From Bacteroidales bacterium (GTDB taxonomy: Bacteria > Bacteroidota > Bacteroidia > Bacteroidales > FEN-979): a DNA stretch of 64,000 nucleotides. A program made the translations under genes and the position numbers. The stretch's first letter is position 1. Every line of letters starts with the position of its first letter. Shown piece by piece: positions 38,975 to 49,737 of this stretch. Below the pieces are notes generated by a model, which saw only the letters and a list, made by a program, of their open reading frames with translations, was not told the origin of the DNA and searched no databases. The DNA lies in the NCBI GenBank assembly GCA_963682005.1, contig OY820914.1:4878005-4942004 (forward strand), in the 5' to 3' direction.

Positions 38975-41900
38975 TCAGTTTAAAATGATAAGCTTTTGTG
39001 ATGTCTGTGAGGAAGCACCATTCCCTCCCTTCACGATCAGGTTATAAATGTATATTCCACTTGCCGCCTTATTTCCGCTATCGGTTTTCCCGTCCCAGGG
39101 AATAAAAACAGGCTGGGATCCATATTCCGTTACCTCTTTCTCTATTGTTTTAATAATATTCCCCGTTACAGAAGAAATCCGGATCTGTATCTTGAGTGTT
39201 CCTGCATTCTGCATCGGGCTTAGCTGAAACGTTGTTGATCCCGAGAACGGATTTGGGAAATTCATGACCTTCTGAACACTTAACTGAGGCTGATCCATAA
39301 CGAAAAAGCTGATCTCCGCCTCAGACGAATTATTATAAAGGTCCCATGCTTTCAGGCTGATGGTATGATAACCCGTCGACAGGTTCATGAGCTGATACTT
39401 CAGGCTTCCCGAACGGTAATTATCAAGTTCCGGTTCAAAATAGTCGTTCAGTACAACGGGAGAAGAGGAATTATGATCCAGGACGGCAAGAAGTTCATGT
39501 CCGATACCAAGCCCGACACTGTTGACCCCGTCATTGTCATTAATATCAGCCAGGAAATATGGATCTGAGGATGTCCTCCCTCCGGATGTGAAATCCCTGT
39601 CCTCCATAAAAAGTTTTATCTCAGGTCCCGGATCCTCTGTATTGACGGACGGATCATTTCCACCGATGATTATATTGCTGAAATATCCGTTTGCATCTGA
39701 TGTACCGTCCTGGCAATAATAGCTCAGTTTTCCCTTCCCGAACCTCAGGTTGATCTCTTTGGGAATGACGCAGGAAAACTCGAAGGAGCCATCCTTCACC
39801 GTTGTTTTACTGTAGGTCAGCAGGCTGTTCTGAAGCTGGAAGTTCTGAGGATAGCTTCCATTGGATCCCGGCTTGTTCCCAAGGGTCCTGAACGTTGCTG
39901 TCTTATCGAACAGCCTGGTAAATAGAGTCCCGTTGTATGATGACAGCTTGTTTCCCAACTGGTCTTCAATCTGACCTTTGACTTTAAGGATTGACAATCC
40001 AAGGATCGTATCAGCCGCGCCGGAATAGGGTGTTTCATTGATTTCGGTTGTCACAACCCTGTTTTTCGGAAATGCGATTTCCTGGGCGGGATCACCAAGC
40101 AGCACGAAATTCCTGATATTGCTGTTATTGTTGTTATTATTTTTCGATATCCGGATCAGATCACCCATGGTTAAAAGGGGTTGCCCGGCCGGAGGAATAA
40201 GATGAGAAAAGAAACTGGTATCAAGCTTGAAATTCGATGTTGCCATGGCTTGCCTTGTCGTTGAATAGAGGGCGATGGCACCACCGGTGGGATGATTGAT
40301 GACCATTTCTCCTGCCGAGAAACGTTCAGGATTATCAAAACGGCTGAATTCACAGGTTGCCGTGATAAAAACCGGGAGTTTATCTGCGTTTGTCCAGCCC
40401 TCAATATCCCCGACCGTCAGGCATTTCTCGCCCGACCACCCGTCTTCTCCGCCATGGCCGGTATAATTGATGATCAGGGAACCGTCTGCAACGACTTTGT
40501 TTATGGTTTTATTCACTTCAGGGAACCGCTCTCCGGCCGGAGTGGAGATCAACGGATAGGCATCAAAATATATTTTATTGACATTGTATCCCGGGTACCG
40601 CTCACCTACGATCTTGGCCAGTTGTTCAGCCTGCTGTAAATGAAGGTTGCTGTTTTCATCATCCGCCACGAATGTCATCCTGTTCCTCCAGTCTGACAGG
40701 ATGGTATCAGAAACAGATGAGTAGTGAATGATCTTGTCGACCATGATCGTTGCCTGTTCGACTGTTGTCACCGGGAAGCGTCCAATCCCCACGTCAATGG
40801 ATCCATTGGCTGCCAGACCTTCATTATCCTCCATGATCCCGAAGTAATCTTCCGTAACATATGACTGGATCTGGCTCATCGATTCCATTGACTGGAAAGT
40901 AGGGATCATGTTATTATTGCCGGGTATCCGGTTTTTCGGATCGTACGACCCGTCGCCAAAAAGAAGAAGATATTTGGGTGCGTTTGAAGGAGCCCCCCTG
41001 TCGAACAGCATTTTCACGAAATCCCTGACAGCTGTCAGATCATGATTTCCGCTTGCAAATTCATTATAGACCTGGGTCGTGGTTGCAACTGCCACACTAA
41101 GGTTATTGCTCTGTTTGTGGAATTCTGCAAGCCGGTTTGCCTGGTCAAGAAACAATGGATGTGTAACGATCACCAGGTTTTTTGGTTCAAAACCATGAAG
41201 GTTTTGATTCGCAACCGGTTCTGTCAGAATGACCGGGTAATATGAGCCTCCGTCAAAGGCAAAAAATTCTTTAAGGGTATCAGTATTGATGATAAAGGAA
41301 AGCGTGTCATGCGACAATAACCCTTCCATTTGCCTGATGTTGGAGCGATCCGATATGTCGAGAACTTTTACATTTTGGTTGGCTCCTGAAAGTATGAATT
41401 GAGAAATGCTGTTCTTGCCGATTGACCCTGCATCCCGGAAACCAAGTTGTGATTCAGACCAGTGAAGATTCCTGCGACAATTGATTTCAATGAAATTGAG
41501 CCACCCGATGGAATTGGAAGATGGCAGCCTGTACGCCAGGTTCAGATGAACCGGGGAACCCTGTCCATGGAAAAAAGTGACTTTCTGCTTCACCTGGCCG
41601 AAATTCTGATTATTCTGAAGGTCGGTATAATCAACCGAAATGGAATCAACTGTCTTATTGCCGGAAGAGAGGAAAAACTTGCTGACCACACCTGCACGGG
41701 CGGCAACATTTGTAATGACCCGGATTACTGAAGATGTATCGATATCAGGAAAAGAAAAAATAAAATCATAGGCATTGTTTGCATTGTTGAATTCTTCTCC
41801 ATACCATGTTCTTCCCGATCTGATAAGGTTGCGTTCATCAATTTCATGAAATTGAAAATCATCAAATTTCGTTACTATATGATTGGGGATGGTATCCAAT

Positions 41901-48800: not shown

Positions 48801-49737
48801 ATCCTTCATACCCGAGTCTTTTTCCGGGACCGAGATCGGCTGTAAGAAAGTAATATGTTTCTTCAGCATAGATATTTTTCTGATGCCTGAATTGATTGGT
48901 ATTCCTGTTAAATGACCATTTATCGGGCGATTCACCATAAAAAAGAATAAAGTCTCCATCATTGAACTGCCCGTCCTCCTCACCGGACACAACGATCGCA
49001 TTTTCCCGAAGATCGTCGGTCTTCGGCGCTGCATTGGATTCAGGAAGCATTCCCCCGCCATTTCCATAAATCCGGATATTTTTGGGGTTTACAGAGGCAG
49101 GTGTCATGCCCAGGCTTACAAGATCGGCGTATGTTATTTTATATATCCCATTGGCTGTTACCTTAAGTTTATACCAGGCACCCGTCTGCAACACTGAATT
49201 TGCTGCATAAGAAAAAGCGGGCTTCAGTGGAACCGGCGATTCGTTCTTTATCGTATGTATTGTCATCCTGAACGAGACCAGTCGTTCGATCCTGCCTGAA
49301 ACCGGATCCCTTCTCATGGGGAGAAAACTGATCGAAACATATGGTATCTTTCGCTGAACAAGGATGCTTTTTCTGATTTCAATGGTTGTTCCGACTTTAT
49401 CAATGTCCCTCACTTGCTGAATGATCTCATCCGGAATTGGTTCATAAACAGCCTCCCTGAAATCACCGGCAAATACCGAGTCGGATGATGCGGTTAGCCT
49501 GAACATCGTGGAATATACAGGCAAAAGTCCGTATTCCTCTTCTGAAACAGCGCCGTCAAAGCCCAGTCTCAGGATGGAGTCCGTTTCCGAAGTCCTGATC
49601 TTCTGATCAGGCAGCCATTTCAACCTTATGCGAAGGTCAATATCACGGCTGTACAGGGATGAAGAAATCAATAATCCTGCACATACCAGGGCAAAAGCGA
49701 TTGCCCGGGACAGGAAGGTCTTGTATGTTTCACGCAT
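45871..49737 (-). CDS. porU: T9SS sortase PorU (long form, with an extra ~190-aa N-terminal region)
   Basis: The ATG at 49737 gives MRETYKTFLSRAIAFALVCAGLLISSSLYS; the ORF-track TTG at 49824 is unlikely. Motifs YTGHGGELGW and VTATCEFSRFD, with the C-terminal domain NFPNPFSDHTTFSFEY. Confidence 0.8.
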   Translation of the reverse strand: MRETYKTFLSRAIAFALVCAGLLISSSLYSRDIDLRIRLKWLPDQKIRTSETDSILRLGFDGAVSEEEYGLLPVYSTMFRLTASSDSVFAGDFREAVYEPIPDEIIQQVRDIDKVGTTIEIRKSILVQRKIPYVSISFLPMRRDPVSGRIERLVSFRMTIHTIKNESPVPLKPAFSYAANSVLQTGAWYKLKVTANGIYKITYADLVSLGMTPASVNPKNIRIYGNGGGMLPESNAAPKTDDLRENAIVVSGEEDGQFNDGDFILFYGESPDKWSFNRNTNQFRHQKNIYAEETYYFLTADLGPGKRLGYEGSTSAPATATVNTFNDFQFYEKDGINLIKSGKAWFDQEIFDVTTSREYNTFNFPNINSSFHAIVTADVVSRCTSVNASFDVSANGQKLMNISVPPVTSNYLDTYAIEKLDSADFYTGNPQITVKLDYKKQDYSAIGYLNYLEINATRNLIMSGNQMAFRSIASMGKNKVSEFILSGTSSTPGIWDVTDPENIKVIGTSFNGSNTVFRLPTDTLREFVAYDGSSYLTPVFVGKQENQDLHGCGAVDYVIVTNPLFMDQAQKLADFHRSLDHLTVLVTTPEKIYNEFSCGSQDVTAIRNFIKMLYDKASPAKEPKYLLFFGDASYDYKDRMPNNTNYVPSFESAESLNPVSTYVTDDYFVLLDDNEGQGASGLLDVGVGRFPVKSVQEAEEALAKIQHYCSQTDTVKNDWRNVVCFIADDKDDPSTNIHMEQADQLGHILDTDYKDYNVDKIYLDAYEQISTPGGARYPDINEAINRRVDKGALIINYTGHGGELGWAHERVLEIADIKSWKNFDRLATFVTATCEFSRFDDPSWTSAGEWVFLNPSGGGIALFTTTRPTFAGDNFVLSSNFYNNAFKKINGVFPKMGDLIMAAKNSTGSQPNSRKFILLGDPALQLAYPQYHIFTTAINQTPVSSVPDTLKALSLVTISGEVRDDDGNKMTSFNGILFPTVFDKASEVYTLANDGGSAAKFFLRKNPLYKGKVAVTGGTFSFSFIVPKDIAYKYGFGKISYYARDPNTDANGYDENIIVGGFDDRNQSDPEGPVIDLFMNDVRFVSGGITDENPILLAFVADTTGINTVGNGIGHDITAVLDGNSKDAKILNDYYVSGLDTYKNGSITYPFYKLTNGKHQLTLKVWDVYNNSAEASIDFVVASSGEFILQHLMNFPNPFSDHTTFSFEYNQPNISMDVEISIFNLGGRKVKTIHQEVSLAGYRCESIRWDGRSDDGSILSTGMYVYYLKAKLPDGSSAEQSSKLIYLR

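Follow-up and report, generated by a model that had tools for sequence, protein, structure and literature searches.

Three diverged PorU-type sortase paralogues in fixed order beside a single porV in a Bacteroidales genome

The stretch of DNA analysed here (the window, 64,000 nucleotides from a Bacteroidales bacterium) holds three head-to-tail genes on the minus strand directly upstream of porV, which is how the initial annotation had placed them. Nearest to porV lies porU-A (38975-42379), encoding a short-form PorU sortase of 1133-1134 aa, for which ATG 42376 (1133 aa) is the more likely start. The middle gene, porU-B (42412-45813), encodes a short form of 1133 aa, and the distal gene, porU-C (45871-49737), encodes a long form of 1288 aa counted from ATG 49737. 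An in-frame TTG at 49824 would extend the latter to 1317 aa, but it is an unlikely start, as both the gene callers and the lengths of the orthologues speak for ATG 49737. Downstream of the three there is a single PorV-type gene, porV (37689-38882, minus strand; NF033710 487 bits, cut-off 250), which encodes the outer-membrane shuttle/channel protein. Divergently from porU-C runs a PorP/SprF-family beta-barrel gene (50072-51061, plus strand; TIGR03519 241 bits), whose position is kept in all related loci, followed by gldJ (51083-52561, plus strand; TIGR03524 463 bits, cut-off 458), the proximity of which had also been recognised at the outset. The gene for the T9SS plug protein (33068-34378, minus strand; NF052315 422 bits), approximately 4.6 kb downstream, belongs to the same conserved neighbourhood, and with porV, PorP/SprF, gldJ and the plug the array is surrounded by genes of type IX secretion. 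The intergenic spacers across the locus measure 32-92 bp. Scans for sigma-70 promoters and intrinsic terminators between 36500 and 50200 returned counts no different from those of shuffled sequence, and no Rfam families were found in the window. Two matches to the Bacteroidetes-type motif TAnnTTTG were seen by eye, one upstream of porU-C and one in the spacer between B and A.

All three proteins belong to the PorU family. The NCBIfam model for the T9SS sortase PorU (NF033707; cut-off 420 bits, 1095 positions) is matched with 1249.5 bits by A, 1239.8 bits by B and 1357.0 bits by C, and in each case the match runs from position 1 to position 1094 or 1095 of the model. Porphyromonas gingivalis PorU (6ZA2) aligns with A at 450 bits (A residues 24-1133), with B at 434 bits and with C at 448 bits, and the alignments end within 2-3 residues of its C-terminus. 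Each translation begins with an N-terminal hydrophobic leader that corresponds to a signal peptide, and each ends in a T9SS C-terminal sorting domain of its own, as was claimed previously; this is seen from the NFPNPF motifs and from the reach of the 6ZA2 alignments, while among the domain models FlgD_ig exceeds its Pfam cut-off of 27 in A alone (28.7; B 24.7 and C 24.1 are below it) and the Por_Secre_tail matches in B and C are sub-threshold.

Peptidase_C25 (PF01364) is present in every copy, at 40085-41173 in porU-A (E 3.5e-107), 43519-44613 in porU-B (E 5.4e-106) and 46960-48069 in porU-C (E 1.7e-105), all on the minus strand. The GHGG and TATC motifs line up with those of 6ZA2, whose catalytic Cys has chain index 688, which we take to be consistent with the published catalytic residue C690 of P. 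gingivalis PorU. The corresponding residues are His642 (codon 40454-40456) and Cys676 (40352-40354) in porU-A, His642 (43888-43890) and Cys676 (43786-43788) in porU-B, and His800 (47338-47340) and Cys834 (47236-47238) in porU-C, again on the minus strand. The observation that the His and Cys contexts are intact in all three copies is therefore borne out by alignment with P. gingivalis PorU, and both residues are invariant in every clade (269 of 269 aligned PorU sequences). The substitution W648L in porU-B, found throughout the B clade, was weighed as a possible switch of specificity and rejected, since single-copy PorUs of the Chitinophagia and Cytophagia types ordinarily have Leu there; no paralogue-specific change that is bound to alter specificity was found in the aligned PorU sequences.

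The distal copy differs from the other two by the additional N-terminal region that the initial annotation had noticed. The signal peptide and a gingipain-pro-domain-like beta-sandwich occupy approximately residues 1-170 of porU-C (49228-49737, minus strand). The 'PorU long form' model (NF052318) matches this N-domain in C only, and there marginally (40.6 bits, cut-off 40); the alignment with 17 long-clade orthologues and confident fold models agree with the match. A and B are without the N-domain, their mature N-termini aligning to C at approximately 205-210 in the 1317-aa numbering, that is, 176-181 from ATG 49737. A Foldseek comparison of the AlphaFold2 model for this part of porU-C (pLDDT 82.9) with the PDB gives significant matches to the pro-domains of RgpB and Kgp only. 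A replicate model was obtained for the N-domain of a 32%-identical orthologue (pLDDT 89.3), and the six significant matches that the two models give are all to pro-domains of RgpB or Kgp (E 3.5e-5 to 4e-4, probability 1.0); TMq is 0.40-0.47 with the untrimmed model and 0.55-0.63 with the trimmed model of the orthologue. At the level of sequence, porU-C does not match the Pfam family Propeptide_C25 (PF08126), for which a weak match (E=0.023) appears in one of 18 orthologous N-domains, and the sequence profile of the N-domain finds no match among PDB sequences. The N-domain of C as modelled has the gingipain pro-domain fold, the similarity being structural only (TM 0.40-0.63). In gingipains the pro-domain stands directly before the catalytic domain; in long-form PorU approximately 370 residues lie between the two.

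The two porV-proximal copies are the closer pair, as had been proposed: A and B share 55% identity, whereas A-C and B-C share 44% and 42%. The initial annotation spoke of a tandem triplication, but a single event is not supported; judged from the sequence comparisons, the array is the product of two nested ancient duplications rather than of a recent triplication. The older split, between the long and the short form (42-44% identity), is by its distribution common to a large group of uncultured Bacteroidales-like genomes, in which long-short-porV is the usual layout. The later split, between the two short forms (55%), is by the same kind of evidence confined to a subclade that includes this genome and comprises six or more contigs of identical gene order; GCA_026391355.1 and two JGI contigs show the order long-short-short-porV. 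Between the window and GCA_026391355.1 the orthologues are 65% (A), 51% (B), 60% (C) and 71% (PorV) identical. Each relative that was examined has either long+short+porV or long+short+short+porV with the same synteny, and more than one porU is therefore the rule in this lineage, an outcome for which the initial annotation had allowed. Further, 45 exact-size contig matches were common to the top short-form and the top long-form PorU hits, and copy A, compared with the GTDB species genomes by means of poorly conserved patterns, gave only 21 loci, the closest named relative among them being 52% identical.

Each copy falls into an orthologue group of its own. The orthologues of porU-A (63-67% identity) are always the porV-proximal copy, those of porU-C are 1283-1290 aa long (61-63% identity), and porU-B, the fastest-evolving of the three, clusters with the middle copies found in other triple loci. 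The short clade and the long clade each have 100% bootstrap support. Inside the short clade the A group has 69% and the B group 94% when the window's copy B is left out, and the placement of that copy inside the B clade has a neighbour-joining bootstrap of 52%. The deep order of the short clade, the long clade and two Lentimicrobium-type clades has neighbour-joining bootstraps of 10-63%. A long stem branch (0.18) leads to the short clade, from which an entire domain has been lost. Elsewhere, PorU of the one or the other form occurs in single copy, for instance in Flavobacteriales and in Chitinophagales-type genomes, and each architecture can therefore work alone as a sortase.

Like gingipain-type cargo, A and B combine Peptidase_C25 with a T9SS C-terminal domain, and could on that ground be secreted C25 cargo proteases or PorU2-type proteins instead of PorU. 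Against this, NF033707 spans positions 1-1095 of 1095 with more than 1200 bits, whereas the PorU2 model (NF052324, cut-off 450 bits) gives 155.4, 185.2 and 196.1 bits for A, B and C, that is, 155-185 bits for the short copies; in the PDB comparison A and B match PorU with E of approximately 1e-129 to 1e-133 and gingipains with approximately 1e-4 or not at all; and both align to C over every domain beyond the N-domain of C. The profile scores and PDB comparisons effectively refute this reading, and the PorU identity first proposed for all three (1240-1357 bits) holds, none of them being PorU2 or gingipain-like cargo. The array could also be an assembly artefact or contain decaying pseudogenes, for in one long-read contig (L001) copy A is split into ORFs of 224 aa and 784 aa. 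That contig differs from the window by just two 1-bp deletions in short homopolymer runs, most likely assembly errors, while an independent assembly from short reads (L002) shows 100% identity to the window across 12.4 kb, and the same array occurs in unrelated samples and organisms; the L002 identity and the presence of the array in other organisms effectively refute an artefact. Nor is any copy a pseudogene, in agreement with the initial annotation, because the array is intact despite the 51-65% orthologue identity to GCA_026391355.1, with the catalytic His and Cys kept.

The remaining alternatives concern what three intact copies do. They could be redundant and kept for dosage or robustness, doing identical work on the same cargo; A, B and C have the same catalytic motifs and, the N-domain of C excepted, the same architecture, and no specificity-determining difference was identified. 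Redundant duplicates are, on the other hand, normally lost or homogenised over such distances, whereas here the identity between copies is only 42-55%, every copy has an orthologue group of its own whose position is fixed in several species, and the short clade combines its long stem with the loss of one whole domain, so that we regard redundancy as unlikely. It is also rather improbable, though conceivable, that one or two of the paralogues would act mainly as regulatory or scaffold partners, for example in latent heterodimers with another PorU. According to a review, the peptidase activity of PorU is inhibited on dimerisation through a beta-hairpin (PMC10202324), and a latent homodimer is reported for P. 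gingivalis PorU; co-encoded paralogues of a shared fold could pair in the same way, and the fast evolution of B would suit such a partner. A pure scaffold would have no need of the His, the Cys and their surrounding motifs, yet these are strictly conserved in all members of all clades.

We consider it probable that A, B and C are three functional, non-redundant PorU-type sortases that are served by one PorV and differ in the control of latency. Under this proposal, the three genes are probably co-transcribed with that of the PorV shuttle, and each paralogue would be exported by the T9SS, retain its own C-terminal domain, dock on PorV and cleave the C-terminal domains off the cargo that PorV delivers. 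Only for P. gingivalis PorU is it known that the sorting domain stays uncleaved and tethers the enzyme to PorV (PMC10202324). Latency would be controlled in cis by the pro-domain-like module in C, and A and B would have no such control. The paralogues probably differ in the cargo or cleavage sites that they accept, or else in outcome, with the product being either anchored to surface glycolipid or released. The short clade arose by an old duplication and was duplicated again in the sub-lineage to which this genome belongs. Specialisation among the copies by sub-functionalisation is plausible. More tentatively, long-form PorU may be a zymogen-like, pro-domain-gated enzyme and the short forms free of gating, with the paralogues setting the fate of cargo (anchoring or release, or different classes of C-terminal domain). 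A dedicated link to the giant repetitive adhesins, which had been suggested at first, is unsupported, as their genes are approximately 30 kb away and a type A sorting domain scores above threshold in just one of them.

PorU is regarded as the one enzyme that completes type IX secretion, and model organisms have one copy. The maintenance of two or three diverged porU genes in fixed order beside one porV throughout an uncultured Bacteroidales-like lineage suggests that several sortases can share the final step of secretion. Should the paralogues have different cargo or acceptors, their comparison would reveal which parts of PorU set specificity and would bear on how the cell chooses between anchoring and release of secreted proteins. 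How PorU selects effectors for release or attachment was called unresolved by a recent review (PMC10202324), and dedicated sortases, if they are such, would provide a natural genetic handle on this selection. The fold match of the modelled N-domain points to a second PorU latency mechanism, separate from the dimer hairpin of P. gingivalis. Searches of the literature for paralogues, copies and homologues of PorU, for PorU2 and for the long form returned nothing relevant, and no paper describing this layout was found; annotation pipelines name each copy 'PorU', with the result that the multiplicity is easily overlooked.

Several known systems can be set beside the array. The putative second sorting system PorU2/PorV2 (NF052324, NF052325) likewise brings more than one PorU-like sortase into a genome, but A, B and C pass the PorU cut-off and fail that of PorU2 (155-196 against 450 bits), and the barrel in the window is a true PorV (PorV2 22.8 bits, cut-off 325). 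The pro-domains of gingipains (RgpB 4IEF, Kgp 5MUN) are zymogen latency domains and, like the N-domain of C, N-terminal modules of C25-family enzymes, with no sequence similarity detectable between them apart from the one Pfam match in 18. In Lentimicrobium/UBA5507-type loci (L009, L011, L020-L022) a full short-form and a full long-form PorU gene also stand in tandem next to PorP/SprF and gldJ genes that are transcribed divergently; unlike in the window, the order is short then long, no porV follows and it is the long copy that has diverged. P. gingivalis PorU (PG0026), the C-terminal signal peptidase/sortase of the T9SS attachment complex, is homologous to A, B and C from end to end (434-450 bits) and about equally distant from each, at low identity. 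It shares with them the gingipain-type catalytic domain with His and Cys in register, the sorting domain and the signal peptide, and with A and B the short form without an N-terminal extension; whereas a review table gives one porU gene for P. gingivalis, there are three paralogues here, one of which has an extra pro-domain-like module. The window has the same gldJ/porU/porV neighbourhood as Flavobacterium johnsoniae, and the Flavobacteriales PorU (L006, 1264 aa) is of the long form, as is copy C. In F. johnsoniae, porU-porV (Fjoh_1556) adjoins gldJ in single copy; in the lineage of the window, by contrast, gldJ is separated from porU by a PorP/SprF gene, and the long form from porV by one or two short-form paralogues.

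Three PorU paralogue genes lie head to tail on the minus strand of the window, namely the long porU-C (45871-49824 as the longest open frame), porU-B (42412-45813) and porU-A (38975-42379), with porV as the next gene (37689-38882; 487 bits on the PorV model NF033710, cut-off 250). The intergenic gaps measure 57 bp (C/B), 32 bp (B/A) and 92 bp (A/porV). In other assemblies of the same locus gene callers start A at the ATG at 42376 (1133 aa) and C at the ATG at 49737 (1288 aa), and since C has orthologues of 1283-1290 aa, the C coordinates of the initial annotation are right. Divergent from C, on its upstream side, run a PorP/SprF-family gene (50072-51061) and gldJ (51083-52561), and beyond these come murF, anmK and folC. 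The genes downstream of porV are ispF, a four-helix-bundle gene, the S6-S18-L9 ribosomal protein genes, an rlmB-like gene and the T9SS plug gene (33068-34378). Base composition is even throughout the region, and thus there is no sign of foreign DNA.

The three-gene array is real and not an assembly artefact. Across 12.4 kb the window is matched at 100% identity by a short-read assembly of a different run (L002), and a long-read ENA contig of the same organism (L001) departs from it solely by the loss of 1 bp at each of two short homopolymer runs (window positions 42267 and 41584). These deletions, which break A into two ORFs of 224 aa and 784 aa (L001 12696-15988), are most simply regarded as assembly errors; A is intact in the window and in the short-read assembly. 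The protein database lists the broken product under P0002. The same long-read metagenome contains another organism (L026) in which anmK is broken into 147-aa and 190-aa ORFs (4935-5998), probably by the same kind of frameshift error.

All three products belong to PorU itself, as initially proposed. Each matches the NCBIfam model 'T9SS sortase PorU' (NF033707) over its full length (A 1250, B 1240 and C 1357 bits; cut-off 420) and contains a Pfam Peptidase_C25 domain. On the 'PorU2' model they score 155-196 bits against a cut-off of 450, which rejects that identity. An identity of the short copies as cargo C25 proteases was also considered. The only strong match among all PDB sequences is Porphyromonas gingivalis PorU (6ZA2), from which the copies are equally distant (A 450, B 434, C 448 bits) and to which they align from just past the signal peptide to the final residues of the C-terminal domain, whereas gingipains give no match or, for copy B alone, a marginal one (E about 2e-4). 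The GHGG and TATC motifs, already noted as intact, are in register with those of P. gingivalis PorU, and the catalytic His and Cys are invariant in an alignment of 269 PorU sequences. Taken together, the model scores, the 6ZA2 match and the invariant catalytic residues exclude the cargo-protease reading.

The initial annotation described the locus as a tandem triplication; the tree and the gene order show two successive events. Pairwise identities (A-B 55%, A-C 44%, B-C 42%) bear out the closeness of the two short copies and are low enough to indicate old duplications. When A and C served as queries, the matches fell into two distinct sets of proteins, short (~1130 aa) and long (~1285 aa). In a bootstrapped neighbour-joining tree (269 PorU sequences, 1127 columns) the short clade, on a long stem (0.18), and the long clade each have 100% support, and each receives one member from every pair-bearing genome. 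The short clade contains an A group of porV-proximal copies (69%) and a B group of middle copies (94% when the window's B is left out), and the two groups are joined at 74%. The window's own B, a long branch (0.38), groups with the other B copies in 52% of replicates, a placement that is also supported by its middle position and by the W648L change specific to B. The long-short-short-porV order with the same flanking genes recurs in the MAG GCA_026391355.1 (L003) and in two JGI contigs, and two further contigs (20,029 and 17,827 bp) carry two short-form matches each. More distant relatives (L005, L026, L027 and L028) have long-short-porV in the same synteny, and 45 exact contig sizes are common to the best 120 short-form and the best 120 long-form matches; this lineage therefore normally has the long and short pair, and multiple porU copies are no peculiarity of the window, a situation that the initial annotation had listed among those speaking against its reading. 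Loci of Flavobacteriales, Chitinophagaceae, Sediminibacterium and Rufibacter have a single copy of PorU, either long or short. In this history an early long/short duplication in the lineage, after which the short copy lacked the N-terminal domain through loss, preceded a short/short duplication in a subclade.

All copies are full length with intact motifs in both the window and GCA_026391355.1, and each is therefore under purifying selection. Identity between the two genomes is 65% for A, 51% for B, 60% for C and 71% for PorV, making B the fastest-evolving copy. Divergence among the paralogues peaks in the N-terminal domains (A residues 201-300) and the C-terminal domain and is lowest around the catalytic domain. 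Fixed differences between the A and B groups are confined to 12 sites, the clearest being W648L, six residues past the catalytic His. Since Leu is also found at this position in ordinary single-copy PorUs of other classes, W648L serves as a marker of the B clade and is no proof of changed function.

The extra N-terminal region described for C, which A and B lack, is predicted to be a folded domain. It matches the NCBIfam model 'PorU, long form' marginally (40.6 bits, cut-off 40). From 18 orthologous N-termini AlphaFold2 produced a confident model (pLDDT 82.9) with a beta-sandwich at residues about 30-165, and its six significant Foldseek matches in the PDB are all gingipain pro-domains (RgpB 4IEF, Kgp 5MUN; E 3.5e-5 to 1.4e-4, probability 1.0), the next match having E=0.07. 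A second model, of a trimmed orthologue 32% identical to C (pLDDT 89.3, pTM 0.80), gave the same six matches and nothing else significant (TMq 0.55-0.63, best rmsd 4.9 Å). At the sequence level Propeptide_C25 produced one weak match in the 18 sequences (E=0.023), and the domain of C had no sequence-profile match. From the models we conclude that long-form PorU has an N-terminal domain of the gingipain pro-domain fold, absent from A and B. Unlike in gingipains, about 370 residues separate this domain from the catalytic domain in C.

In the established model PorV carries cargo to the attachment complex, where PorU cuts off the C-terminal domain and either attaches the cargo to anionic LPS or sets it free; PorU itself remains on PorV with its C-terminal domain retained, and dimerisation holds P. 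gingivalis PorU latent (PMC10202324). By homology, each of A, B and C would be an exported protein that docks on the one PorV and acts on cargo. Non-redundant roles are favoured by the age of the copies, their fixed order, the separate orthologue groups and the difference in domains; the roles would differ in latency control and probably in cargo or acceptor preference. The suggested link with giant adhesins is not borne out. Two neighbouring genes about 30 kb from the array encode proteins that start with an Ice-binding-like domain, one of 2588 aa (452-8218) with a sub-threshold type A T9SS sorting domain and one of 962 aa (8694-11582) with PKD-like repeats and a clear type A domain, the only one above threshold; nothing ties them to a particular sortase.

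Several further features of the neighbourhood were observed. The PorP/SprF-family barrel gene lies between gldJ and the porU array in all related loci examined, and this conserved position raises the question of whether one paralogue partners the barrel instead of PorV. By eye, the Bacteroidetes -7 promoter motif TAnnTTTG has a match upstream of porU-C (TACTTTG, about 49846-49852) and another in the 32-bp spacer before porU-A (42396-42403, TATCTTTG), the latter hinting at a candidate internal promoter for A and porV. Between ispF and the S6-S18-L9 genes the window has the four-helix-bundle gene (36595-37041; '23S rRNA intervening sequence protein' family TIGR02436), whereas no gene is called at this position in L003, L026, L027 and L028. 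A TamL-type lipoprotein gene (30612-33071, 720 bits) converges with the plug gene, their ends overlapping by 4 bp, and an Omp85/TamL-type gene adjoins the plug gene in most of the opened related loci reaching that far (L001, L003, L028).

What does the array represent? It is no one-off of this genome: the whole lineage has a multi-sortase form of the T9SS attachment step, and one subclade has the three-gene version. Database curators already define the 'long form' N-terminal domain and a separate 'PorU2' family, and public MAG annotations already call adjacent genes PorU; our literature search found no paper on PorU paralogues or the long form. The interest is moderate, and would be greater should the fate of cargo turn out to be set by the paralogues, because the choice of PorU between release and attachment is called unresolved in a review (PMC10202324). 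A different pair is found in Lentimicrobium/UBA5507-type loci (L009, L011, L020, L021 and L022), where, unlike in the window, a short copy (~1148 aa) precedes a long one (~1300 aa) and the pair adjoins PorP/SprF and gldJ with no porV after it; its long copies make up a highly divergent clade (stem 0.37). Among known systems the PorU-PorV module of P. gingivalis and Flavobacterium johnsoniae comes closest, with a single porU in each.
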